From the NCBI RefSeq assembly GCF_024502345.1, contig NZ_JALDNN010000001.1: 64,000 nt of DNA; one strand, written 5' to 3'. The notes below the pieces were generated by a model. It worked only from the letters and a program-made list of their open reading frames with translations, did no database searches and had not been told where the DNA came from. The position numbers and the translations under genes were made by a program. Each line of letters opens with the position of its first letter. The first letter of the stretch is position 1. Source of the DNA: Escherichia coli. Lineage in GTDB: Bacteria > Pseudomonadota > Gammaproteobacteria > Enterobacterales > Enterobacteriaceae. Positions 9,252 through 57,322 of the stretch are shown here, in pieces.

Positions 9252-9821
9252 ATGGACATCGATTTCAAGAAGTTGGCTCCCTGGAACTGGTTCAAGAACG
9301 AGCAGCAAGAGCAGCAGACCGCCTCTTCCCTGCCGGTGCAGCGCAATGACCTGCCAGCGGCGAGCGGGCCAGTCAGCCCGATCCTGCAACTGCGTCGGGA
9401 AATCGACCGGCTGTTCGATGACGCATTCCGGGGCTTCGGTTTTCCGGCGTTGAACATGCCGCAGTGGCCATCCGATTGGTCGGGCATGCTGAAGCCGGCC
9501 CTGGACATCCAGGAAACCGACAAGCAGTACAAGATTGCCCTGGAAGTGCCCGGTGTCGAGGAGAAGGACATCCAGATCACCCTCGACAACGACGTGCTGA
9601 TGGTGCGTGGCGAGAAGCGCCAGGAACAGGAGAAGAAGGAAGGTGGCTTCCACCGTGTGGAGCGCTCCTACGGCAGCTTTCAGCGTGCCTTGAACCTGCC
9701 TGACGACGCCAACCAGGATTCGATCAAGGCATCGTTCAAGAACGGGGTGCTCACGGTCACGATCGACAAGCGCGAGGTCAGCGCGCCGAAGCAGGGACGC
9801 TCGATCCCGATCAACGGCTGA
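9252..9821 (+). CDS. hsp20: Small heat shock protein, Hsp20/alpha-crystallin family (LHR sHsp20)
   Basis: 189 aa with alpha-crystallin domain signature (...ALEVPGVEEKDIQITLDNDVLMVRGEKRQEQ...GVLTVTIDK); GGAGG RBS upstream. Confidence 0.9.
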   Translation: MDIDFKKLAPWNWFKNEQQEQQTASSLPVQRNDLPAASGPVSPILQLRREIDRLFDDAFRGFGFPALNMPQWPSDWSGMLKPALDIQETDKQYKIALEVPGVEEKDIQITLDNDVLMVRGEKRQEQEKKEGGFHRVERSYGSFQRALNLPDDANQDSIKASFKNGVLTVTIDKREVSAPKQGRSIPING

Positions 9822-9926
9822 CGTCGCCGGCTCGTTCGTCACAAGAAAAACCCGTCCCGAGACGAGGTGTCGCGGCTCGCGATGCCTCGTCGCCTCAACC
9901 TTTTCAACCTTCTAAGGAGCATCAGC

Positions 9927-12809
9927 ATGGCCAGAAAACAATGCCAGGTCTGCGGCCAACCCGCCACCGTGCGGGTGGAAGCCAATCTCAACGGTCGTCA
10001 CAGCACCATGCTGTTGTGCGACGACCATTACCGGCAATTAGTGCGCCAGCAAAAGCGCACCGTTTCGCCGCTGGAAGCCTTGTTCGGTTCGCGCAGCGGC
10101 CTGTTCGAGGACTTCCTCGGCAGTGACTTCTTCCGCATCGGCGACGACGCGACGCCAGTTGCCGCCGATACCGATGACGTGGTCGATGCCTCGTTTGGCG
10201 AGCCCGCCGCCGCAGGTTCGGGTGCGCCGCGCCGTCGCGGCAGTGGGCTGGCCAGCCGCATCAGCGAACAGTCGGAAGCCTTGTTGCAGGAGGCCGCCAA
10301 ACACGCTGCCGAATTTGGCCGCTCCGAGGTGGATACCGAACATCTGCTGCTGGCGCTGGCCGACAGCGACGTGGTCAAGACCATCCTGGGTCAGTTCAAG
10401 ATCAAGGTCGATGACCTCAAGCGGCAGATCGAGTCTGAGGCCAAGCGCGGGGACAAGCCCTTCGAGGGCGAGATCGGCGTGTCGCCGCGCGTGAAGGATG
10501 CGCTCAGCCGCGCCTTCGTGGCCTCCAATGAACTCGGTCATTCTTATGTCGGTCCAGAGCATTTCCTGATTGGTCTGGCCGAGGAAGGCGAAGGGCTGGC
10601 CGCCAACCTGCTGCGCCGCTACGGCCTGACGCCGCAGGCGCTGCGCCAACAGGTCAGCAAGGTGGTCGGCAAGGGCGCCGAGGATGGACGCGCTGAGACG
10701 CCGACCAACACGCCCGAGCTGGATAAATACTCGCGCGACCTCACCAAGATGGCGCGCGACGGCAAGCTCGACCCGGTGATCGGCCGCGCGCAGGAGATCG
10801 AAACCACCATCGAGGTGCTGGCCCGGCGCAAGAAGAACAACCCGGTGCTGATCGGCGAGCCGGGTGTGGGCAAGACCGCCATCGTCGAAGGGCTGGCGCA
10901 GCGCATGGTGGCGGGTGAAGTGCCCGAGACCTTGCGCGACAAGCGCCTGGTGGAACTCAACATCAACGCCATGGTGGCCGGCGCCAAATATCGCGGCGAG
11001 TTCGAGGAGCGCGTGCAGAAGGTGCTGAAGGAGGTGACCGAGCACCAGGGCGAGCTGATTTTGTTCATCGACGAGGTGCACACCATCGTCGGTGCCGGCC
11101 AGGGCGGTGGCGAAGGCGGGCTGGACGTGGCCAACGTATTCAAACCGATGATGGCGCGCGGTGAACTCAACCTGATCGGCGCCACGACGCTGAACGAGTA
11201 CCAGAAATACATCGAGAAGGATGCCGCACTGGAGCGGCGCTTCCAGCCGGTGACGGTGCCCGAGCCGACGGTGGCCCAGACCATCATGATTCTGCGCGGC
11301 CTGCGCGACACCTTCGAGGCGCACCACAAGGTCAGCATCTCCGAGGACGCGATCATCGCGGCGGCCGAGTTGTCCGACCGCTACATCACGGCGCGCTTCC
11401 TGCCGGACAAGGCGATCGACCTGCTCGACCAGGCGGCCGCGCGCGTGAAGCTGTCGGCCACGGCCCGGCCGGTGGCCGTGCAGGAGCTGGAGTCCGAACT
11501 GCACCAGCTGCGGCGTGAACAGGATTACGTGGCCGCGCGCAAGCAGTACGACCAGGCCGCCGAGCTCGGCAAGCGCATCGAAGCCAAGGAGACCGAGCTC
11601 AAGAAGCTCGTCGAGAACTGGGAGCGGGAGCGGGCCTCCGGCAGTGCAGAGGTCAAGGCGGAACACGTGGCGCAGATCGTCTCGCGCCTGACCGGCATCC
11701 CTGTCAACGAGTTGACGGTGGAAGAGCGCGAAAAGCTGCTGCACTTGGAACAACGGCTGCACGAGCGCCTGGTGGGACAAGACGAGGCGGTCCGTGCCGT
11801 GGCCGATGCCGTGCGGCTGTCCCGCGCCGGCCTGCGCGAAGGCAGCAAACCGGTGGCTACCTTCCTGTTTCTGGGCCCGACCGGGGTGGGCAAGACCGAG
11901 CTCGCCAAGGCATTGGCCGAATCGATCTACGGCGATGAGCACGCCCTGTTGCGCATCGACATGTCGGAATATGGCGAACGCCATACCGTGGCGCGGCTGG
12001 TGGGCGCGCCTCCGGGCTATGTCGGTTACGACGAAGGCGGTCAGCTCACCGAGAAGGTGCGGCGCAAGCCCTACAGCGTGCTGCTGCTCGACGAGATCGA
12101 GAAGGCACACCCTGACGTCTACAACATCCTGCTGCAAGTGTTCGACGACGGTCGCCTCACCGACGGCAAGGGCCGGGTGGTGGATTTCACCAACACCATC
12201 ATCATCGCCACGTCCAACCTGGGTTCGGACATCATCCAGCGACGGCTGAAGGCGCGTGGGGCGGCCGACGAGGAGTACGAAAAGACCAAGGCCGAGGTCA
12301 TGGACGTGCTGCGCGGCCACTTCCGGCCCGAGTTCCTCAACCGCATCGACGAGATCATCGTCTTCCATGCGCTGGGTAAGGAGGAGATCCGCCACATCGT
12401 CGGCCTGCAGCTCGATCGCGTGGCGCGCAGCGCCGCCAGCCAGGGCGTGACGCTCACTTTCGATCAGACGCTGATCGACCATTTCGCGGAAGAAGGCTAC
12501 AAACCCGAGTTCGGTGCGCGTGAACTCAAGCGCCTGATCCGCAGCGAGCTGGAAACTGCGCTGGCGCGCGAGATGCTCGGTGGCGGCATCGGCAAGGGCG
12601 ATCACGCCAGCGCACGCTGGGACGACAAGGCCGAACGCGTGGTGTTCGAACGCAAAGAGCCACTGCAGACCCCGGCCGAGCCGGAGCAGCCGGATGCCGC
12701 GAAGGCGACCGAGCCGGAGCAGCCGGATGCCGCGAAGGCGACCGAGACGCCGCACGGCGACGCTGGCAAAGGCTCGCGCAAGAAGAAGTCGGCGAGCGAC
12801 GCATCTTGA
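9927..12809 (+). CDS. clpK: ClpK/ClpG-type AAA+ disaggregase (Clp ATPase with N-terminal zinc-ribbon-like CxxC..CxxH)
   Basis: [36 protein letters not shown]-terminus; two AAA+ modules (GEPGVGKT..., [15 protein letters not shown]...); AAGGAG RBS before ATG 9927. ORF-track start at 9867 is a less likely upstream start. Confidence 0.92.
12678..12743 (+). repeat. Perfect 2 x 33-bp tandem duplication inside the clpK 3' region (encodes [11 protein letters not shown] twice)
   Basis: GAGCCGGAGCAGCCGGATGCCGCGAAGGCGACC occurs twice in direct succession, in frame. Confidence 0.9.
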
Positions 12810-13000
12810 TGGCGGGCGAGGCTGCCGTGTCCGACCCCAAGGGCCTGGCATGGGCAGCCTCCCTGGCCTCGATCGCGGTGGCGTTCGTGGCCGCGGGTCA
12901 CGCGGTCGTCTACAAGCGTGATCCGCGGTCGACCACGCCGTGGGGGCTGCTCATCAGCGGCGGCACTGCCCTCCCGCTCGCTGGCCATCCGTTTGCGTGA
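12809..13000 (+). CDS. Small hypothetical hydrophobic protein between clpK and the ftsH-like gene (speculative)
   Basis: 63-codon ORF starting at ATG overlapping the clpK stop; hydrophobic; may be a GC-rich frame artifact. Confidence 0.3.
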   Translation: MAGEAAVSDPKGLAWAASLASIAVAFVAAGHAVVYKRDPRSTTPWGLLISGGTALPLAGHPFA

Positions 13001-13060: not shown

Positions 13061-14788
13061 ATGGAAAAAAAGAATCAATGGAATACCGGCTACTGGATCG
13101 TTGCCCTCCTGCTGTTGTTGAGTTTGCAGAGCTACTGGCAGACGGCGAAAACCGTCGAGCCGGTGCCCTACAGCGAGTTCGAGAAGGCGCTGGCCGAGGG
13201 GCGCGTGGCCGAAGTGCTGGTGTCGGATCGTACGGTGACCGGGCGCCTGAAGTCGCCGGACAGCCGGGGCAAGACGACGATCGTGGCAACGAGGGTCGAA
13301 CCCGATCTTGCCGATCGCCTGTCGAAGTACGACGTGCCCTATGCCCGCGTGTTGGAGAGCACCTGGCTGCGCGATGTGCTGTCGTGGATCCTGCCAGCGG
13401 TAGCCTTCTTTGGCGTCTGGTTCTTCCTGTTCCGCCGCTTCGCCGAGAAGCAGGGCATGGGCGGGTTTCTCAACATCGGTAAGAGCCGCGCCAAGGTGTT
13501 CGTGGAAAAGAACACCGGTGTGACGTTCGCCGATGTCGCGGGGGGGGATGAGGCCAAGGCGGAGCTGGTCGAGATCGTCGATTTCCTGAAGAATCCGCAG
13601 GACTATGGCCGTCTCGGGGCGCGCATTCCCAAGGGCGTGTTGCTGGTCGGCCCACCGGGCACCGGCAAGACATTGCTGGCCAAGGCTGTTGTCGGCGAGG
13701 CGGCGGTGCCCTTCTTCTCCATCTCCGGATCAGAGTTTGTCGAGATGTTCGTCGGCGTGGGTGCGGGCCGCACGCGCGGCGTCGGCGGCCACGACGAGAG
13801 CGAGCAGACCCTCAACCAACTGCTCACGGAGATGGACGGCTTCGACAGCTCGGTCGGGCTGATCATCCTCGCCGCCACCAACCGCCCCGAAATCCTCGAC
13901 CAGGCTCTGCTGCGTGCCGGCCGCTTCGACCGCCAGGTGCTGGTGGACCGGCCCGACAAGAAGGGGCGGCTGGACATCCTGAAGGTTCATGTCAAGAAGG
14001 TGACGCTGGCCCAGGATGTAGACCTCGAACAGGTAGCAGCACTGACCACGGGCTTTTCCGGCGCGGACCTCGCCAATAGGGTCAACAAGGCGGCGCTGGC
14101 GGCGAGGAGACGCCGTGCGTCCGCCGTGGAATTGCAGGACTTCACCGCGACCATCGAGCGCATCGTGGCGGGCCTGGAAAAGAAGAGCCGCGTGCTCAAT
14201 CCCAAGGAGCGGGAAACCGTGGCCCATCACGAGATGGGCCATGCGCTGGTGGCGCTGGCGCTGCCCGAAACCGACCCCGTACACAAGATCTCGATCATCC
14301 CGCGCGGCATCGGCGCGCTGGGCTACACCTTGCAGCGCCCCACCGAAGACCGCTTCCTGATGACGCGTACCGATCTCGAGCACAAGATCGCCGTACTGCT
14401 GGGCGGGCGTGCCGCCGAAAAGCTGGTGTTCGGCGAGTTGTCTACCGGGGCGGCGGACGATCTGGCGCGAGCCACCGACATCGCCCGCGACATGATCACC
14501 CGCTTTGGCATGGACGAGGGCCTGGGCTACATCGCCTTCGAGGCGCAGCGGCCCCGCTTTCTCGATACACCGGAACTGGCCCACGGCGGTTGCCGGGTGG
14601 CCGAATCGACCCAGGCGCGCATCGATCAGGCTATCCGCGACATCGTGATGGGCGTGTTCGAGCGCGCCTACCGGATTCTCGACATCTACCGCGCGGTGCT
14701 GGAGCGCTGCGCGCGCGAGCTGCTGGCGCGGGAAGCGCTCGACGAAAGCGATATCCGTCAATTGACTCAAGGACTTGTTCGGAACTGA
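13061..14788 (+). CDS. FtsH-like membrane AAA+ zinc metalloprotease paralog; Walker A and HEMGH present, Walker B segment apparently missing
   Basis: Two N-terminal TM segments, GPPGTGKT Walker A, HEMGH zinc site; [28 protein letters not shown] lacks the ~27-29 residues (including IIFIDEID) present in E. coli FtsH at that position. Confidence 0.85.
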
Positions 14789-45900: not shown

Positions 45901-48900
45901 CGCATCATACTGCCAGCGGAATAACTCTCTTCGTCAATACGGCTCTCGCTGTACGCTTACCCATCTAGAGAGGTTTCAGGTGATTATCGATGTCAGAAGA
46001 CTGAATGATTCAGTCGTTTACTTTGAGATAGATCAGAGGTTTTTCACTACCTGTGTTCATCACATGGCTACGAATAGTAGAATCCAAGCATAAATTAACG
46101 CTTAGAAAAGTTGAGCTCATGAGATTCCACCCTGAAGGGCCTTCCATACCCGATATCCTCTTAGAACGCTGTGATACAGGTCGAGTTGTATTTCTCTGTG
46201 GCGCTGGGGTTTCATTACCTTCAGGGATGCCAAGCTTTGTAGAGCTTACCCAGCATGTAATTGAATACTTTGACCCACCACACGATTCAGAAATCATGGC
46301 AGCATTTCGCCCATGGCTTCACGACCAATCTTCAGCTAATGTCCCTCTCGACCAAATTTTCAACCTCCTACATCTGGAATATGGCAAGGATGAGGTGAAT
46401 GCTTTGGTATCAAAGCGTCTGGGGACTGCAAGAACTGATATAGAGATTGGACGTGAGCATGCCCTGATTAAAAGAATTTCCTCAAATCAGAGTGGTGTCC
46501 CACAGATTGTCACAACGAACTTTGACCGACTGTTCGAGGATAACCAAGCGCAAGATAATCTAACTCGATATGTGCCGCCAGCTTTCCCAAATCTGAATTT
46601 CGGTTCGACAATTGAGGGAATAACATATCTTCACGGCCGCCTGGTCGACGAAAATGCTGTAAACCATCCTTATGTGCTGAGCAGTGCAGACTTTGGAAGA
46701 GCATATCTTTCAGAAGGATGGGCGACCAATTTTATTAAGCTTCTTCTGGAACGATACATCGTTGTTTTGGTCGGTTATCAGGCAGAAGACCCACCAGTTA
46801 AATACCTCCTTCAGGGTCTCAATCATGATGGCCAGTATGATCGTTCCAGACTTTATGCATTTGATCGCGGCCTTGCCGAGGATATCGAAGCCAAATGGCG
46901 TGACAGAGGAGTTACAGCCATAGCCTATTCCGATCATCCAGCTCTTTGGAAGACTTTGGAAGCATGGGCTGAGCGAGTAGATGATCCACGTCGATGGCGA
47001 GCTTCTATTATCGCTAAAAGCCAGCAAGATCCGAAAGTTCTAGCACCGTATGAACGTGGTCAACTTGCCCATATACTTCGCACTACACAAGGTGCGAAAT
47101 TGTTCTCTGAAGCTGTTCCTCTTCCCCATCCAGAGTGGCTTTGTGTGATGGATGCAAATATTCGGTCAGCCAAACAGAAGAAAAGATACTACGAACTTGA
47201 TGACAATGATGCAGAGACCTTCGATCCACAAGAAGCTTATGGGCTTGATGACGATCTGCAAGATATCGCTGATGATGAACGTAAACGTGGAGTGAGTAAC
47301 GATAATCTCCTTGAATGGCGCGACGAAGATGATAACCCGTCAGATTACCATCGCTTGGCTGGATGTTTGGAGACAATGCCGAAACGATTGAGCCATCTCA
47401 TGGTCTGGTTCTGCAAATCTCTTGATAGCCCCGTGATGGCTTGGTGGGCTATCCGAAAAATCAGTATTCATCCTCTACTACTACAAAATATTGAACGCAA
47501 TATTGAGCATTCAACATCAATCCACAAACGCGCTCGTCAACTGTGGGGCTTAATTCTTGAACATCATAAAGATCCCCGCAATCGTCGTTATGACGTCGAT
47601 TGGTACGACTTAAAAGCTCGAATTACAAAACAAGGCTGGACAGCTGGTGTCTTACGAGAATTTCGTAGGGTAATGACACCCCGATTGGAAAAGAAGTTGC
47701 CGTATGGATTGGGTGAAGTCAGACCGCCAAGCGGCTCCTGGGAGGAAATTCAGTTCAGCGAATTTGGCCAATTTGAAGTTGTGTTCACCGAAAGACATGA
47801 TGACGATTTAGACGTACCTGACAATGTATTACTACAAGTATTTAATGCCTTAGAAGCGCAAATAATAACTGCCTCCGGAATGTTAGAGGATATTGATACG
47901 CACTACTTTCCAAGCCCAAGTTGTTATCCAGAACGTGCGGTTGAAGGAGAAGAACATTTCGCGAAAGGTGCGGAGGTATTAACTTGGTTTGTCCAACTTT
48001 TAGACCGAGTTGTTATGAAGTGGCCAGAATTGGCTAAGGCATACGTAACAACTTGGCCAGTTAAGGAGCCATTTTTCTTCCGAAAGCTTAGACTTTATGC
48101 ATTCAGTAAAAAAGGCGTCTTTGAGGCTGACCGTGTTGCCGAAGAGCTTTTGTCTTTGGATCAAAGTGGATTTTGGGACACAAATATTACCCGCGAACTT
48201 CTTTTTCTGCTCACTGATCGTTGGGAAGAATTCTCGCAAGAAAATCAGAATCGAATTATAGAGCATATATTAACCGGCCCGAACCATTTACTTTATTTGT
48301 CTGAGGAAGACATTCCAAAAGAAAGAGAGATATTAGCAGCTAGATACGCTCGTTATCTCGAACTAAACGGCTGTAAAGTAACCACTATTCATCGTGACCA
48401 ACTAACTGCGATGATTAAAAGAATTCCTGACTGGAATGATGGCTGGGCTACATCTGTTGTCATCAATTGGGGTTCACGGACAGGTTGGGTTCGTACAGAC
48501 GAAAAGCCAGATATAATCTTAGATCTTCCAGCAAACGAAATAATCCCAAAAGTAAAAGAGATACTTAAACGAGAGGATGATAGCTTTACTAGTAGGCAAC
48601 CCTTTGTCGGATTGATAAAAGAAAATCCGCGTAAAGCTTTGTCTGCACTCGCTATTGCAGGGAGAGGCGGTGATTACCCTAAGGAATTTTGGTCGCCAAT
48701 GATAAGTGAGTTACCTATAGATCTTAAACCAAGGGTGAGACGAGTATTCCTGAACCGAATTGTGCGATTGCCAGTTACAGCTTTGGTCGAGTTACGACAT
48801 ACATTAAGTAACTGGCTTGAACAAAATTTAGCTGCGACTCTTGAATTTGATGAGGATCTCGGGTGGGCAGTTTACGATCATGTCATAGCAGGCATACTGA

Positions 48901-49333
48901 GTGGTGGCGCCAGTGCAATACGGAGTAGTTTCGGAGAAGTTATCCGGAATGGAGAAGTTGTAATACAGTCTCGCCGCACGTTCAGTCATGCAATCAATGG
49001 TCCTGTCGGTAAATGTACTCAAGCGCTTTTTCAAGCAATGCCAAGTGAAGAGAAAAAAGCTGGTTCGCTTATTCCTTACTCTATTAAGTCTCGTATTGAA
49101 CATCTTTTTACTGCACCAGGAGAAGGAGCGGACCACGCTATAGCTATAACGTCTCGCAATCTAAATTGGCTAATGTTTGTTGATCCTGCATGGGTAAAGG
49201 AATGGCTTATACCCCTTTTGGATTTAAAACATCCTGCAGCAGAACCAGTATGGAATGGTTATCTTCAGTGCAATGCTATGCCTTCAATTGCAGTAGCTGA
49301 ACTTATTAAACCAGCTTTTCTTAACCTTATCCC

Positions 49334-50390
49334 GGCTTTGTTGAATAAATCAGATTTCGGGTAAGTCTCCCCCGTAGCGGGTTGTGTTTTCAGGCAATAC
49401 GCACGCTTTCAGGCATACCTGCTTTCGTCATTTTGTTCAGCGCTCGTACCAGGGCCATAGCCTCTGCAACCTGACCATCGTAGTCACGCAGTGTCAGTGA
49501 ACCCCCGAACAGCTGTTTTACCCGGTACATCGCCGTTTCCGCTATCGAGCGACGGTTGTAATCTGTTGTCCATTTCCACCGCGCATTACTCCCGGTCATT
49601 CGCTGATTAGCCACTGCACGGTTACGGTCTGCATATTCACCGGGCCAGTAACCCGCACCTTTTCGGGGAGGGATAAGCGCGCTGATTTTCTTACGCCGCA
49701 GTTCATCGTGACATAGCCGGGTATCGTAAGCGCCATCGGCGGCGGCTGACCTGATTTTCCGGTGGGTTTGCCGGATTAACCCGGGGAAGGCCTCTGAGTC
49801 CGTAACGTTGTTCAGCGACAGGTCAGCGCAGATGATTTCATGTGTTTTACTGTCAACGGCGAGATGCAGCTTACGCCAGATACGGCGGCGTTCCTGGCCA
49901 TGCTTTTTGACTTTCCACTCGCCTTCACCGAAGACCTTCAGCCCGGTGGAATCAATTACCAGGTGTGCGATTTCACCCCGGGTGGGCGTTTTGAAACTGA
50001 CATTAACCGACTTTGCCCGCCTGCTGACACAGCTGTAATCCGGGCAGCGTAGCGGAACGTTCATCAGAGAAAAAATGGAATCAATAAAGCCCTGCGCAGC
50101 GCGCAGGGTCAGCCTGAATACGCGTTTAATGACCAGCACAGTCGTGATGGCAAGGTCAGAATAGCGCTGAGGTCTGCCTCGTGAAGAAGGTGTTGCTGAC
50201 TCATACCAGGCCTGAATAGCTTCATCATCCAGCCAGAAAGTTATGGAGCCACGGTTGATGAGGGCTTTATTGTAGGTGGGCCAGTTGGTGATTTTGAACT
50301 TTTGCTTTGCCACGGAACGGTCTGCGTTGTCGGGAAGATACGTGATCTGATCCTTCAACTCAGCAAAAGTTCGATTTATTCAACAAAGCC
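49334..50390 (-). mobile_element. IS903-group element, copy 2, inverted relative to copy 1, with 9-bp TSD CCTTATCCC
   Basis: Same terminal repeats as copy 1; CCTTATCCC at 49325-49333 and 50391-50399. Confidence 0.92.
49390..50358 (-). CDS. IS903-type transposase (copy 2)
   Basis: 322-codon ORF with translation identical to 38097-39065. Confidence 0.92.
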   Translation of the reverse strand: MKDQITYLPDNADRSVAKQKFKITNWPTYNKALINRGSITFWLDDEAIQAWYESATPSSRGRPQRYSDLAITTVLVIKRVFRLTLRAAQGFIDSIFSLMNVPLRCPDYSCVSRRAKSVNVSFKTPTRGEIAHLVIDSTGLKVFGEGEWKVKKHGQERRRIWRKLHLAVDSKTHEIICADLSLNNVTDSEAFPGLIRQTHRKIRSAAADGAYDTRLCHDELRRKKISALIPPRKGAGYWPGEYADRNRAVANQRMTGSNARWKWTTDYNRRSIAETAMYRVKQLFGGSLTLRDYDGQVAEAMALVRALNKMTKAGMPESVRIA

Positions 50391-51152
50391 CCTTATCCCT
50401 TGGATCGAATCTCTTTCTTGGGAAAAAGATTATTCAGTTCGAGCTTCGCAATGGCTTGGCTTAATGAGAATGTTTCACCCTGATGAGCCCTCCAGTCCTT
50501 CCAGGAATGAAATGCGCTCCATATTACGAGCATTATCTGACGAGGCTCGAAATCGTTTTATTTCCTGGTTAGGATTGGTCGGGCAGAAAAACGAGAGTGG
50601 CTGGGTTAAGTATGTGATCCCATTAATCAGAGAGGACTGGCCCAAAGAACGCCAATATAGAACCACGAGCTCTGTAAAAGCATGGATTGGTTTACTTGAC
50701 GATACTGGCGATAAGTTTCCGGAGGTTTACGATTCAGTAAAAACATACTTAGTACCAATCGAGACAATTGATCATTTGTTCTACAGATTCACTCGGGAGC
50801 TCGGTGGTAAAGGAGCAATTGCAGCTATTTTTCCAGAAACCACGCTTGATTTAATGGACAAAATAACACCACTGATATTCACGCGTACATCAGGAGAGCT
50901 GCAGAAGATTCTTGAGCTAATTGAAGATACAGATACAAGTCTGATCAAGGATTCTCGGTACTTACGGCTTATTGCACTGGTTGAGAAAAATTAGCATTTA
51001 TGGTTTTTTACCGTTGTTGATTACTCAGCAACACTTTTCGACATGCCGTAGCGCTTATCGCCTGTTCTTGACTAAGATGAGAAGCAGGCGTTAAAGTTTG
51101 GTTAAAGGAGAACCTCTAACCATTCCTTCTGGAAGAAATAATCTTTGGAGTA

Positions 51153-51875
51153 TTATTGAAATTGCTCAAATATACCATGCAACCCAATAAATTTTATTTT
51201 TAGTGCAGGATCATGCCTTAGAACAGTCTCAAGTGAGTTCCGCTCATAAATTATTGATTGTGCTTGTATTGAGCCGTTCCATGAAGGCAAAAGCAGTAAA
51301 GCAGATGTTTCCAAATCAATACCCCACCAATCGTTAACATAGCAATTTAAAAAATCAACAAGAGCCTTAATCGCAATAAAAGCATCTTTTTCGGTATATG
51401 TTTCAGGATCGAGGGATATACCTGATATATTACTTTTAGCTTGCTCGGAATTAATATTAGACTGGTGTTGATAAGCAATTTTTCCTTCACCCGGTTTAGT
51501 TTCTATTGTATCAGTGAAAATTTTAATCTTAGGATGCACCAATGCATTTCGTTGTGCTATTAATTCTTTTATTATTTGTGTTTGAGTGGTTCCACGAGGT
51601 AAAGACATGTCTTTATGCCATTGAAGAGTATAGTCAAATTTATCAAGTGAAGAGAACCTGTCAATTTGATCTTTTAACTTTTGCGTTATTTCTATAGAAG
51701 ATAAAAATGAGTTAGCTGCAGCCTCAATAGCGTAGTTAATTGAAAGTACACTTGATTTGGCAAGTGTTTTTTTGATGTGTGATTTTTTTGTTGCAGCTGA
51801 TAATTCATAAAGAGTTATTGCATCAGAAAAAAGCTCAAAAAAGCTGTTCTTGGTTATTTCAACTTTTCTTTTCAC
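51153..51875 (-). CDS. P3: hypothetical ~240-aa protein with possible HEPN-type R-x4-H motif
   Basis: ORF 51153..51881; ELIAQRNALVHP contains R-x4-H; start uncertain (TTG at 51881 or GTG at 51875). Confidence 0.55.
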   Translation of the reverse strand: MKRKVEITKNSFFELFSDAITLYELSAATKKSHIKKTLAKSSVLSINYAIEAAANSFLSSIEITQKLKDQIDRFSSLDKFDYTLQWHKDMSLPRGTTQTQIIKELIAQRNALVHPKIKIFTDTIETKPGEGKIAYQHQSNINSEQAKSNISGISLDPETYTEKDAFIAIKALVDFLNCYVNDWWGIDLETSALLLLPSWNGSIQAQSIIYERNSLETVLRHDPALKIKFIGLHGIFEQFQ

Positions 51876-51965
51876 ACGCAACCCTCTGCATAAAAAAATA
51901 AAATCATATAGACAGAATACAATTTCCTATAATCTTTATATTCTACTAATTGTGGATATAAATGG

Positions 51966-53438
51966 CTATCGAGAATAAGAACTGGGTTTAGGAAAACCAC
52001 CTCTGACGACGACAACAACAATTGCAACTTGAGATTGACCTGTTGGATGAGTGAATACTTCAATATCATCCTCTATTACTCCCACCGGCGCTGATTTTGA
52101 CGTTGATTCCAGAACAACCAAAATACCGATACGCTTACCTAATCCAATGGCATAAGCTGCTGTTTGATCGAAATATTTTTGAAAATCCTTGGGAAAAAGA
52201 ACCTTATTATTTTCAACTTTTAGTTCTATCGAAATGTCTTCAAATGTGAGATCCGTTATCCCGCCAGCAGCCTCTGGATGGCCTTGTAATTTCTCGCCAA
52301 TCTCATTCCTACTTCTAAGCATTTCGGCTATTTTACGCTGAAATTTTTGCTCTGATGTGCCAGCAATAAATAAACTAGCTTTAAGAGCTTGTGCTGCAAC
52401 ATTTCCTAAGCCGCCAAGTATAACCATTGTATTAGCAATGTCATCTGAGTGTAATCCAGGGAAAGCTCGTAATATGTTACGAATTTTTATAAGATGCCTA
52501 TCGACGTTTGAAAATCCAGTTAATGGAGCTTGAGCGGAATCACTCCCTTCAAGTAGTAAGCGCCTATGTCCTACGATAGCAATATTTTGGCAATTACTTA
52601 AATTGTCAAACTCGGCAGCATATAGGAATTCGTAAGGTCTCGAGCCAAATGAATTTGCCACTTCCAAGACGACACGACCGATCCCCTTCAGTGTGAAGGG
52701 GCCTTCCCCCTCTGGTTTCTCAAATCTAAAATCAGGCAACCAGTCTCGCTCACGAGCATCAATTGTCACTGGCTTTAATGAGAGGAAATTTGCACTTTTT
52801 GGCCAATTTGAAACCCTGACCTCTATGTTAAGGTCATAAGCCGTACCCGGCTTAAGATAATTCCATTGCTGAGCTGGTTCCCCATCAATATCAAACTTTA
52901 GAAATGCAACTGTCGATTCTTGTGTTTTATTCTCTTTTGTCCCTTTACTAGATATTCCTTGCCTAATCCCCTCAATATTTTTATCGCGAAGATTTGCGAA
53001 TAAGAGTAGTGGCAATGACCAGCTTGTTAACTGGTCTTGTATTTGTTTTAATGAATCTAATTTACTGATTGAACGGACTTGCTCTATAAATTCATTAAAT
53101 TGTTTGTTCTCCGAGAGACTCGTCGTCATGTCGATCTCTGATGCTTTTAATTGTGCTGAATTTAAAAACCTTTGAGCATCAGTCTCAGCATTACGTATAG
53201 CATGTTTCCACTCAGCTAGAGTTACAAATATAGTCATTGCTATATAATATGCACGATATTGATCTTCAACATATCCCTGACCGAGCTCATCGAGCGTTTC
53301 ATTGAGCTTTTGACACGCTTCTTTAAGTTTCACCAAGTCATTCGGAATGGACTTGAGTGCACCATCCAACGCTGCTGCAATCTCAACCCTCGGAGAAAAA
53401 GCTTGGCGGAAAATCTCGAAATTTGGCTCGTTCTTCAT
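51966..53438 (-). CDS. P2: hypothetical ~490-aa protein with possible PD-(D/E)xK-like nuclease core near the C-terminus
   Basis: ORF 51966..53480; C-terminal GGITDLTFEDISIELKVEN...GILVVLE resembles a D...ExK core; any in-frame Met start overlaps the P1 3' end by at least 56 nt. Confidence 0.55.
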   Translation of the reverse strand: MKNEPNFEIFRQAFSPRVEIAAALDGALKSIPNDLVKLKEACQKLNETLDELGQGYVEDQYRAYYIAMTIFVTLAEWKHAIRNAETDAQRFLNSAQLKASEIDMTTSLSENKQFNEFIEQVRSISKLDSLKQIQDQLTSWSLPLLLFANLRDKNIEGIRQGISSKGTKENKTQESTVAFLKFDIDGEPAQQWNYLKPGTAYDLNIEVRVSNWPKSANFLSLKPVTIDARERDWLPDFRFEKPEGEGPFTLKGIGRVVLEVANSFGSRPYEFLYAAEFDNLSNCQNIAIVGHRRLLLEGSDSAQAPLTGFSNVDRHLIKIRNILRAFPGLHSDDIANTMVILGGLGNVAAQALKASLFIAGTSEQKFQRKIAEMLRSRNEIGEKLQGHPEAAGGITDLTFEDISIELKVENNKVLFPKDFQKYFDQTAAYAIGLGKRIGILVVLESTSKSAPVGVIEDDIEVFTHPTGQSQVAIVVVVVRGGFPKPSSYSR

Positions 53439-55956
53439 ATTCTTTCTCCAACTCAGCCGTAAGACCATTCCATTTTTCAATTAAGTCATTATAGGGTTCG
53501 CAAACACTTATGGCATGTTCAATGCTAGCTGCTTCTGTAACTAAAGCAGCCTTAAGTTTCCATTGTGTATTTCTTTCATCATTTGGAATTTCTTCCAGTA
53601 GTTCCTTTAAACAAACATTTGCAGTTACGTTATCACCACACTTGCTTAACGCAGCCACGTACACTAATGCTTCAATAAATTGTTGAGGTTTAAATGGTTT
53701 CAGAGCATTGAATGCTTTTTGGAGATCGTCTTTACAATTTCGAAGCTCATCATGTGGCGCTCTTAATATCACTGAGATGCAGTCATCAATAGAAATACTG
53801 CGAGTATACTCATCCTGAATTGCTTTGAGTGCGACTTTGACAAAACCGGGAATATCATCAAAATGAAAACGCAATCGATTGATAGCATCATAAAGTGCAC
53901 TTCCTTCTAAAATTAATAATATATTAGAAAGAAGCAATCCAATTTTCCCCTTTCTCTCTTCATCTGATAAGCAAAGAGAAGAAAAAACGTCAATGCATTC
54001 TACAATGAAATTATCTTTTTTATCTTGTTGAATATAATAGCAAATTAGATTCCATAGCCGGGATCTCACAAGTCCCCGTTTCTCCTCAGGAAAAGATCTA
54101 CGGCTCAAAGCGCGAACAGCATACTGATGCACCATAACATATTGATCTAATAGCAAGACTGAATATGCTTCGAAGAATAAATCTGGGAAATTCTTCACTA
54201 AATCATAGGGAACATTTTCCCACGCTTGTACGGCACGTGCTCGAATCAATGTACTCTCATCCATAAGAGCACGATACCAATCGGAGAGCACTAGTGTTAG
54301 GCTGTCAATACCAGTTAATAACTTAGAAACATGGGCAATCATGTTCCCACGCATTTGAGTTTGTTCTTCTGGTAAGCTTCTATAGAGATGAAGAAAATCA
54401 TCGATTCCTTCACTCCCTCTAGATTTAGCTCCAATCGCAGCCCATTCAATCAATGCACCCTGTAAGCCATCAATAGCATTACGCTTATTACTTTTATCTA
54501 AATGATCTAGAAAACTCTCATTTATTTCTATGATTTTTTCTTTATTCAACGCCTCAAATTTCTCGCTTAGCGTTGCAGCCGCTCCGATCAAATCGTCAAA
54601 ATTATCAACTGCAAGCTCAGCAAATTCGTCCCAAGAGTGTCTAAAGAATTGTCCTGCATCATCCATGCTATCCTCTGGATTTTCCACAGCAGCCCAGAGC
54701 AAACGCCTAAAAGCTATTTTTTGTGTCTTTCCTGTTTTACTTTTTTTTCTATAGTTATTTCGCAGTACAGATCTGTAAGCTCTATTGGCCTCATGTCTCC
54801 CAATATCATCTTTGTCAGCAAGATAGGATTGAATAACTTTATCGCTTTCATCGGGAAATCTATCTAAGTATTTCGTAGCAGCCTCCCGAAGAAAGAAAAG
54901 AATGCTGCTATCTCTCCGCTCCTCCGGGAGTAGAGTCCGTCGACGCATCAGCTTAGCAAATATACTTCTAATATGTCTTAGAAGCAGCTCATCATCATCC
55001 GATGCAATAATTATCTCAATAGCAAATTGAAATTTTCCCCGGTGAGTATCTTTTATGTATTCATCAACAACATCACAGATATCAGCTTGTCTTTTTTTAA
55101 AAAGTGACTGAATGGGGCCTTTATTAAGTACTTTTCGCTCAAATGTGCCAATCATCATTCCAGGAGGAGATTCAACAGCCATTCTAACAAAGTGGTAAAG
55201 GACTTTTAAGAAATCATCTTCAGATAGATTCTCTGCTTCCAAGAGGATTGCTTCTATAGCTAGTGGACAATATTCGAAGTTGTTTATTAAATATACTGAA
55301 ATTGCCAGTTTTTCCGCTTGTGATAATTCAGTTCTTATTAAAGCTTTTGCTGCTGGCATTGAATATGGTAATTTCTCATGTAACACTGCAGGCAACAAGT
55401 GTTCAATTATTTTACTTGTAAATGTCTCAGGTGCCAGATTAGCAAGTTGTTCCAAACGGGGATCGTTGTTCTCTATATCCTCTTGATCGAGTTCATCAAG
55501 CAAATCAAGCACAAACGTTTCTTCTAGAGTAAGTGAAAGACGTAATACTGCTCGTTCTTGTTGTCTATTGAGCTGCTTCTGCTTTCTCTGCCTTTCTTCT
55601 TCTTTGCGAGCCAAATTTCGTTCTTCGGCAGATTTTTCTCTTGGGCCTACAAACTCTAAAATATTGGGAAATCCCACCGGAACCCGTTGATTACAATGTT
55701 TACAGTTCTGTTTATAGAAGCTGTAAACCGAGTCTTCCAGCAGCCAGCTAAGCATTGAACTTTGCTTAACAAATTTGCATTGAACTCCCATGTGACCAAT
55801 GGGTAACCCTGTTTCAGCCTCAATCATGCCTCTCCCCTCTGATCGAATGAATTCAGAGTGAGAACACCAGTTACTAAGTAGGTGTACAGCACGGAGATTT
55901 CGTTGACCAGCTTCGATTGCCTCTTCAAATCTTTTTTTATCTTCAAAATCATCCAT
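53383..55956 (-). CDS. P1: hypothetical 857-aa largely helical protein with N-terminal Cys/His cluster
   Basis: ATG start MDDFEDKKRFEE; N-terminal C-x-H...C...C-x2-C arrangement (NWCSHSE...GVQCKF...QNCKHCNQ), then a basic coiled-coil and long helical region; low GC. Confidence 0.65.
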   Translation of the reverse strand: MDDFEDKKRFEEAIEAGQRNLRAVHLLSNWCSHSEFIRSEGRGMIEAETGLPIGHMGVQCKFVKQSSMLSWLLEDSVYSFYKQNCKHCNQRVPVGFPNILEFVGPREKSAEERNLARKEEERQRKQKQLNRQQERAVLRLSLTLEETFVLDLLDELDQEDIENNDPRLEQLANLAPETFTSKIIEHLLPAVLHEKLPYSMPAAKALIRTELSQAEKLAISVYLINNFEYCPLAIEAILLEAENLSEDDFLKVLYHFVRMAVESPPGMMIGTFERKVLNKGPIQSLFKKRQADICDVVDEYIKDTHRGKFQFAIEIIIASDDDELLLRHIRSIFAKLMRRRTLLPEERRDSSILFFLREAATKYLDRFPDESDKVIQSYLADKDDIGRHEANRAYRSVLRNNYRKKSKTGKTQKIAFRRLLWAAVENPEDSMDDAGQFFRHSWDEFAELAVDNFDDLIGAAATLSEKFEALNKEKIIEINESFLDHLDKSNKRNAIDGLQGALIEWAAIGAKSRGSEGIDDFLHLYRSLPEEQTQMRGNMIAHVSKLLTGIDSLTLVLSDWYRALMDESTLIRARAVQAWENVPYDLVKNFPDLFFEAYSVLLLDQYVMVHQYAVRALSRRSFPEEKRGLVRSRLWNLICYYIQQDKKDNFIVECIDVFSSLCLSDEERKGKIGLLLSNILLILEGSALYDAINRLRFHFDDIPGFVKVALKAIQDEYTRSISIDDCISVILRAPHDELRNCKDDLQKAFNALKPFKPQQFIEALVYVAALSKCGDNVTANVCLKELLEEIPNDERNTQWKLKAALVTEAASIEHAISVCEPYNDLIEKWNGLTAELEKEYEERAKFRDFPPSFFSEG

Positions 55957-57322
55957 TTAGATAACACCCTTATAAGGAACATGTACTCATCTAAAATGCT
56001 GTTACCGGATTATTATACCTAAAACAATGAATGCTGTGTATTATGAAATGTGATATAAGTCAATTAGTTACATATAAAAACCAACTCACATCCAAAAGGA
56101 TAGTATTTCGAGGTTTGTAGCATCATTAAATGTGAACTTATTTATCGCCCCCTCAAGTTAACTAATAAATAAGTTATAATTTACATATACTTCTGGAATT
56201 TAGAAACCTTATATCTAATAGTTGAGTAAGTTAATAATCAACATGAGTGTGATTCATAAAAAAAATAATTATTATTTTCAGCCCCTCCATTATGGAGGAG
56301 CAATAATAGTATAGTTTTCCTGTATTCCTAACGATCCAGTTAGGCTTAGAGAAATCTAATTATGAAGCACTCCTGAGAGCAACCCTTCCAACTTTATCAA
56401 TATAATCCGCATACCACTGCATCATCTCTCTCCTGCCTTCCAAATACAGCGCATGGTTGTACGTCCCGCGAATCGCATTCTTATCGACATGCGCAAGCTG
56501 GGTTTCAATCCATGCGGTATTGAACCCTTCCTCATGCAAAATCGTACTCATCGTGTGGCGGAAACCATGCCCCGTTACCTTCCCCGTGTACCCAATCCGC
56601 TTAAACACCTGATTAATACTCGCTTCGCTCATTGTTTTGCGGGGATCATTCCTCCCAGGAAACACCAGAGGATATTGCCCAGACATCACTTTGAGCTGCT
56701 GTACGATCTCCAGCGCTTGGGTAGAGAGGGGCACCAGGTGAGGCCGTTTCATCTTCATGCGCTCTGCAGGTATTTCCCACACCGCTTTTTCAAGATCAAA
56801 CTCACTCCAGAAAGCACCTCGAAGCTCACCGGTGCGAACCCCCGTAAGGATCAGCAAACGTGCGGCAAGAACAACCAGCGGGCTGCCTGTATAGCCAGAA
56901 AGAGCTTTAAAGAAATCTGGTAACTCCTCAACGGTAAGGAAGGGATAATGCTTCGATTCATGCCCTGACATCGCGCTGGTTAGATCCGCAGCCGGATTGT
57001 ATTCCGCACGACCGGTAACTATGGCGTAGCGAAAGACTTCGCTGCAGCGCTGGCGAACTTTCTTGGCCTTCTCTGTCGCACCACGGCTTTCCATTCGACG
57101 CAGTACATTCAACAGAACAAGAGGCTTAATTTCATTGACTGGCTGCTGACCGATATAGGGAAAAATATCTTTATTTAAAGCTTCGATAATGTCCGATGCA
57201 TACCCTTCTGACCATCTGCTCACCTTCGTACCGTGCCACTCAAGCGCCACAGACTGGAACGTATTATGATCTTACCCAGCAATAGTGGACACGCGGCTAA
57301 GTGAGTAAACTCTCAGTCAGAG

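Follow-up and report, generated by a model that had tools for sequence, protein, structure and literature searches.

The 64,000-nucleotide stretch of Escherichia coli DNA analysed here (contig NZ_JALDNN010000001.1 of RefSeq assembly GCF_024502345.1; hereafter the window) carries a clpK gene of the clpK1 / clpG_GI type within a locus of heat resistance (LHR). The open reading frame (ORF) extends from 9867 to 12809 on the + strand. An identical RefSeq sequence (E. coli 504239) is annotated as clpK from the ATG equivalent to position 9927, so that the coding sequence is taken as 9927-12809 and the protein as 960 amino acids (aa). Close to the 3′ end of the gene, and in frame with it, there is a tandem repeat of a 33-bp unit that is present in two copies in the window allele. 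The number of units differs between clpK alleles of E. coli, and it is this length polymorphism that is analysed below.

The two copies of the unit GAGCCGGAGCAGCCGGATGCCGCGAAGGCGACC lie on the + strand at 12678-12710 and 12711-12743, without a mismatch between them. This is as described in the initial annotation, which had proposed a perfect in-frame 2 x 33-bp duplication at 12678-12743. Each unit is translated into the identical 11-residue peptide, adding two prolines and a net charge of -2 to the protein. Tandem Repeats Finder places the full periodic span at 12676-12746 on the + strand (period 33, 2.2 copies, 100% matches, score 142). The additional 5 bp are accounted for by the microhomology CCGAG, which occurs at 12676-12680, 12709-12713 and 12742-12746, i.e. 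once at each outer border and once where the two units meet. This is the sole tandem array with a score of at least 60 across the window. Given the base composition of clpK, about 2e-12 perfect adjacent 33-mers would be expected by chance in 64 kb.

As judged by its scores against curated models, the gene product belongs to the ClpK / ClpG_GI stand-alone disaggregases. It matches the NCBIfam ClpK model NF033606 over its full length with 2132 bits (cutoff 1900), while the model for the core-genome ClpG (NF033607) gives 1301 bits, under its cutoff of 1900. NF033606 has a length of 949 positions, corresponding to the form of ClpK with a single repeat unit. Pfam identifies the domains Clp_N, AAA, AAA_lid_9, AAA_2 and ClpB_D2-small. 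Taking Pfam, the sequence and a structural model together, the domain order is that of ClpK, with a Cys-rich N1 domain, N2 (Clp_N), AAA1 with a short M domain, AAA2, D2-small and an extension at the C-terminus (CTE); the N-terminal part of the protein includes the sequence LLCDDHY. Autonomous, DnaK-independent disaggregation has been demonstrated for homologues (including those in PMC8024975), and is a prediction for the window allele.

The Pfam families in the window follow the order HTH_17, HSP20, ClpK, FtsH and HSP20, which is that of the helix-turn-helix (HTH)-sHSP20-clpK operon of the locus of heat resistance. The sHSP20 gene (Pfam HSP20, RefSeq) lies directly upstream of clpK in this operon context, at 9252-9821 on the + strand. 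A near-identical locus in RefSeq continues with sHSP20-GI, yfdX1/2, hdeD-GI, trx-GI, kefB-GI, psiE-GI, htpX and a gene for a DegP-like protease. The island is thus a locus of heat resistance of LHR1 type, also known as tLST.

Alleles of clpK were compared at the level of DNA, and all the units that they contain are exact. A single copy is present in AW1.7 and BKQWHE (949 aa), two copies in the window, 504239 and EcPF16 (960 aa), three in KL53, 730V1 and 22AR0118 (971 aa), four in FAM21845 (982 aa), and 5.0 units in two assemblies, one of them GCA_002521615.1 (993 aa, WP_097511014.1). The lengths of clpK in RefSeq (2850, 2883, 2916 and 2949 nt) correspondingly rise in steps of exactly 33. Outside the repeat the ClpK proteins compared are identical, save that the window allele has A556T and that of EcPF16 has two substitutions. 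The 949-, 960-, 971-, 982- and 993-aa proteins are products of one gene with a length polymorphism. The repeat is not fixed; its copy number differs among LHR variants as the initial annotation had anticipated, with 1, 2, 3, 4 and 5 units all found in DNA. Head-to-tail copies that number at least two, and vary in number between otherwise homologous alleles, make this a variable number of tandem repeats (VNTR) locus.

The same protein background was constructed with zero to seven units, and a collection holding some 15 billion proteins was searched for exact matches to each form. Copies were counted in this way because a protein search with the last 141 aa returned mainly gene fragments, and that search served only to explore the diversity of the tail. 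In counts of contigs, which mirror sequencing effort and not population frequency, the forms with one and two units were each found on at least 1000 contigs, that with three units on 228, with four on 21 and with five on 2. No form with zero, six or seven units was found by exact look-up in this collection. The window's own protein, carrying A556T, was present on 17 contigs.

Among 5,426 complete E. coli genomes a 601-bp query around the repeat matched 144 records, with matched spans of either 601 or 568 bp, i.e. differing by 33. Sorting of 120 repeat-bearing records from these genomes with queries of 2.2 and 3.2 units gave about 51-55 records with one copy, about 61-65 with two, three with three copies (KL53, 730V1 and 22AR0118) and one with four (FAM21845), so that at least two units are present in about 65-69 of about 120 records. 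In two of the complete genomes (E. coli PRO_A-1422-6M-A_ESBL and cS108a) the allele is of two units and its periodic span of 71 bp shows a single point difference (98.6% identity), indicating that some two-copy alleles are old enough for divergence to have started. Among plasmids, two or more units were found in 2 of the 1001 records containing the repeat region, both of them E. coli plasmids (CP060076 and CP061756); no plasmid record from outside E. coli, including 978 from Klebsiella, had more than one unit. A scan of one genome per species gave no match to the unit junction and none to the single-copy arrangement; the island is accessory and seemingly missing there, or the search patterns were too strict.

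Eleven alleles, with the repeat collapsed to a single unit, were compared along 4,068 bp of sequence that reaches from the HTH gene as far as the small ORF past clpK. There are 37 variable sites among them. FAM21845 (four copies) and both five-copy assemblies show no differences over this length. KL53 (three copies) is distinguished from these by one private single-nucleotide polymorphism (SNP), and the three-copy alleles of 730V1 and 22AR0118 are one SNP away from FAM21845. The two-copy allele of 504239 and the one-copy allele of BKQWHE have three SNPs in common. The two-copy state occurs on three separate haplotypes (the window, 504239 and EcPF16), and among three-copy alleles site 9796 is G in some and A in others. 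The most parsimonious reading of this small tree would need about five single-unit changes, which puts the repeat, in qualitative terms and for alleles picked for their copy-number diversity in a gene with active recombination, on the timescale of point mutations across 4 kb.

A homologous unit, GAGCCTGAGAAGCCCGATGCCGCGAAGGCGGCC, is found in a diverged ClpK lineage of Acinetobacter and Alishewanella, in which the tail of the protein ends ...ETPPSDASKPARKKK... The unit is single in a plasmid of Acinetobacter nosocomialis. It is duplicated, in the same register as in E. coli, in one contig of A. baumannii and one of Alishewanella (both short, about 590 bp each), where the copies differ by one nucleotide. 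Bases specific to the lineage are present in both copies, and the duplication was therefore separate from that in E. coli. The microhomology at the borders is longer in the Acinetobacter-type lineage (GGCCGAG).

Other small in-frame changes occur in this part of the gene. A 931-aa ClpK encoded by two K. pneumoniae plasmids has one unit together with a 54-nt in-frame deletion (18 residues) between two GGCGA microhomologies, which also takes out the right-hand CCGAG beside the unit. An in-frame 12-nt micro-duplication is present in two C-terminal fragments of ClpK (P0007 and P0057), giving KPARKPARKKK where relatives have KPARKKK. Given this KPAR duplication in the same tail, the C-terminal extension of ClpK seems generally prone to small in-frame insertions and deletions.

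The repeat lies within the C-terminal extension of the protein, comprising aa 914-960 (12666-12806, + strand), and the Pfam match to D2-small stops upstream of it. A model of aa 760-960 was calculated using AlphaFold2 with an alignment of 34 sequences. The D2-small domain has a predicted local distance difference test (pLDDT) score of 85-96 up to the strand RVVFERK. By contrast, aa 914-960 (residues 155-201 of the model), including both repeat units, have pLDDT <50 and no secondary structure, and the tail is thus predicted to be intrinsically disordered, in agreement with the literature. Past the last strand the tail has 40 aa and a net charge of 0 with one unit, rising to 84 aa and a net charge of -8 with five. 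The initial annotation had called the extension acidic and of low complexity. This holds for the repeat, with its net charge of -2 per unit, and 94% of the tail consists of P, E, A, K, D, T, S, G and Q; the tail terminates, however, in a basic KKK patch. In the literature the CTE of ClpG/ClpK is described as 20-40 residues, Pro/Lys-rich and disordered, with its role stated to be unresolved (Katikaridis et al. 2021, J Biol Chem, PMC8024975). Deletion of the CTE from ClpG_GI (dCTE) left disaggregation in vitro and protection against lethal heat essentially intact in the same study.

We interpret the repeat with good confidence as an in-frame coding VNTR (i.e. a minisatellite) in the disordered tail of ClpK, probably made by slippage and most likely neutral or nearly so. 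The ancestral state would have been a single 33-bp unit between 5-bp direct repeats of CCGAG, and in single-copy alleles CCGAG does flank the unit on either side, the two being 33 bp apart. The first duplication could then arise by replication misalignment between these microhomologies, for which such an arrangement is a classic substrate. Once two perfect units were present, slipped-strand mispairing (or unequal exchange) would gain or lose whole units, and the outcome would be the E. coli LHR1 allele series of one to five copies. The perfect identity of the units in the two- to five-copy alleles fits recent, repeated events. We infer slippage from the whole-unit differences on otherwise identical 4-kb haplotypes, the 5-bp flanking microhomology, and the independent duplication in the diverged lineage. 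As 33 is a multiple of three all the alleles remain in frame, the ATG of the downstream ORF is untouched and there is no on/off switching. The tail is predicted to be unstructured and is largely dispensable for disaggregation, so that the variation in its length is most likely neutral, or nearly so.

A number of observations weigh against this interpretation. The approximately 999 plasmid-borne alleles, mostly from Klebsiella, are single-unit, and expansion is therefore not universal. The description of the repeat as slippage-prone, used in the initial annotation, is an inference from comparative data. The 11 alleles compared were picked because they differ in copy number, so that repeat changes look more frequent relative to SNPs than they otherwise would. 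With regard to neutrality, a tail of five units has a net charge of -8 in place of 0, and dCTE ClpG_GI complements dnaK103 cells less well at 41 °C (PMC8024975). Lastly there is recombination between LHR copies, shown by a tract in the window allele that is described in the next paragraph, and by this means copy-number states could shift haplotype without new slippage.

The clpK1 allele of the window contains a short gene-conversion tract derived from LHR2-type clpK2, at 10715-10742 (feature span 10709-10742). The clpK2 state is seen at six consecutive diagnostic third-codon sites (10715, 10718, 10721, 10724, 10727 and 10742), whereas the diagnostic sites on either side, 10694 and 10760, are of the clpK1 type. 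All 10 of the other alleles compared, from clpK1 or Klebsiella, are without the tract. The A556T change (11592) is likewise in the clpK2 state. Within the tract lies the exact binding site of clpK2_R, a primer specific for clpK2 (Boll et al. 2017); clpK2_F has no site in the window allele, so that the polymerase chain reaction (PCR) for clpK2 should remain negative.

The length variants might instead arise and spread mainly by homologous recombination, with sister chromosomes or two LHR copies crossing over unequally and alleles being shuffled afterwards. Many E. coli contain two LHRs (PMC5383660), the clpK2-derived tract shows that clpK copies swap sequence, and the occurrence of three copies with either base at site 9796 is also consistent with such exchange. 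Yet 33-66 bp is little homology for RecA-dependent exchange to be efficient, and the unit in LHR2-type clpK is diverged and single, hence no donor of extra units. Moreover the four- and five-copy alleles are otherwise identical, so the change of one unit is the sole event that separates them. While sequence data cannot formally separate slippage from unequal recombination, we regard recombination as the rather unlikely main source of the length variants.

Selection offers a different explanation, whereby the number of acidic, proline-rich units would set some functional property of the protein (for instance how far the six tails around the AAA2 ring reach or what charge they carry, autoregulation, or contacts with partners or aggregates), with different lengths kept in heat-exposed niches such as dairy and meat processing. 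The reduced complementation of dnaK103 by dCTE ClpG_GI suggests some role for the tail in vivo, and a change of -2 per unit amounts to -12 per hexamer. The four-copy prototype (FAM21845) came from raw-milk cheese, the homologous unit has been duplicated in a second lineage, and the zero-copy form was not found by the exact look-up. However, the retention of in vitro activity and of lethal-heat protection by dCTE argues against such tuning, and heat resistance is documented for strains with both one copy (AW1.7) and four (FAM21845) (PMC5514686). Alleles with two and three copies are of mixed origin, including human urine, stool, beef, mussels, seawater and cheese, and the steep drop in abundance with rising copy number matches a stepwise mutation process. 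We therefore consider adaptive tuning improbable. Its boldest form is more doubtful still. This would make the unit number a tuning knob, in which a tail net charge of 0 to -8 per subunit modulates the activity, stability or partner contacts of ClpK in vivo, heat- or chlorine-exposed niches favour different lengths, and the recurrence in two lineages reflects selection beyond a mutational hotspot.

Assemblers sometimes collapse or expand short tandem repeats, but there is next to no chance that the copy-number differences are artefacts of assembly or sequencing, given that five units (165 bp) are still at the scale of read length, the variants are found in many independent complete genomes (including a PacBio assembly of FAM21845), the three-, four- and five-copy proteins recur on 228, 21 and 2 contigs, and the lengths always step by exactly 33 bp, the units being free of errors.

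Instability driven by a hairpin was also considered. Folding of two units gave z = -2.7 on the + strand and z = -0.5 on the - strand, and a single unit gave z = -1.0. The signal is weak and strand-dependent, and so a hairpin is not invoked.

Immediately downstream of clpK there is a 63-aa ORF (12809-13000, + strand; a hypothetical protein in RefSeq), of which the ATG overlaps the clpK stop codon (TGATG). It is a remnant of the N-terminus of cardiolipin synthase, with 64% identity over 53 aa to cls of the LHR2-type locus L017; a cardiolipin synthase gene sits between clpK and ftsH in LHR2-type loci. The presence of orfA remnants in LHR1 was already stated by Boll et al. (2017). A long antisense ORF at 10038-12851 is regarded as a by-product of high GC content.

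The LHR ftsH gene follows at 13061-14788 on the + strand, encoding 575 aa. By comparison with the 90%-identical FtsH of L017 (609 aa) the LHR1 protein is without a 26-residue block containing Walker B, and without four further residues, while the HEMGH protease motif is retained. It is probably ATPase-dead. In E. coli it is the short form that is common (more than 1000 contigs). In other LHR1 copies (L001, L004, L006 and L007) ftsH is frameshifted in 504239, and encodes 548 aa in 730V1 and 572 aa in EcPF16; in AW1.7 it is broken by a known 901-bp deletion. This instability of ftsH across LHR1 copies suggests decay of the gene in E. coli.

Elsewhere in the window a defence island of low GC content (39-46%) spans about 41290-55960, adjoining proA/proB (59.2-61.6 kb). 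Within it lie a PDC-M09B candidate (41292-42737), after which comes an 840-aa ORF without a match, a SIR2 protein of Dsr1 type (46053-49364) and, on the - strand, Olokun OloB/OloA (51966-55956). Two further ORFs of the island, of 322 and 242 aa, have no match in Pfam or PADLOC.

The gene, the island and the disordered tail are already known, and the length variants are present in public databases under separate accessions. No description of the clpK repeat polymorphism was found in the literature searched; most subscription journals lay outside that search, and an earlier mention is possible. In the paper on the FAM21845 genome clpK is given, without comment, as 96.6% identical to that of AW1.7. 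This value equals 2850/2949, and so the three extra units explain the entire difference between the two genes. One paper goes no further than to note changes that ‘accumulate at the highly charged C-terminus’.

The importance of the polymorphism is modest, and its use is practical rather than conceptual. It bears on annotation, allele calling and identity-threshold screens for LHR or clpK in food and clinical isolates, where the curated model represents the 949-aa form. The repeat could also be a cheap PCR-size marker for LHR1 subtyping in source tracking, and the alleles provide a natural isogenic series of tail lengths (40-84 aa) with which to probe the function of the C-terminal extension of ClpK/ClpG.

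The spa gene of Staphylococcus aureus contains in-frame 24-bp Xr repeats that are the basis of spa typing. The clpK repeat is alike in having a unit that is a multiple of three, gain and loss of whole units, a location in a non-globular region, a copy number likely to change faster than the point mutations around it, and hence possible value as a typing marker. By contrast spa encodes a surface protein, whereas ClpK is a cytosolic chaperone encoded on a mobile island, with a small range of copy number (1-5); and since the clpK units are mutually identical they offer no diversity of unit sequence to type, unlike those of spa. In the contingency loci of Neisseria and Haemophilus simple-sequence repeats switch genes on and off by frameshift. 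The clpK repeat shares with these a presumed hypermutability mediated by an intragenic repeat, but a 33-bp unit (i.e. 11 codons) cannot shift the frame and each of the five alleles is a complete, full-length ORF (949-993 aa). A phase-variable locus was rejected on these grounds, and without on/off switching the clpK repeat is not a member of this class. The acidic C-terminal tail of yeast Hsp104 resembles that of ClpK in being disordered, acidic and placed after the second AAA+ module of a disaggregase, but the two are not related in sequence. We know of no copy-number polymorphism in Hsp104-type tails, nor of a partner for the ClpK tail.

The closest relative is the CTE of ClpG/ClpK itself. 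The tail described here has the same family and the same position after D2-small, is likewise Pro/Lys-rich, charged and predicted to be disordered, and is similarly unneeded for disaggregation in vitro. It differs in that the published CTE is of 20-40 residues with no mention of a repeat (PMC8024975), whereas tails of the window type reach 40-84 aa by means of a perfect 11-residue repeat that is polymorphic within one species. The clpK repeat is a fresh instance of the in-frame coding VNTRs found in non-globular regions of proteins, ordinary in kind and unsurprising to the specialist.

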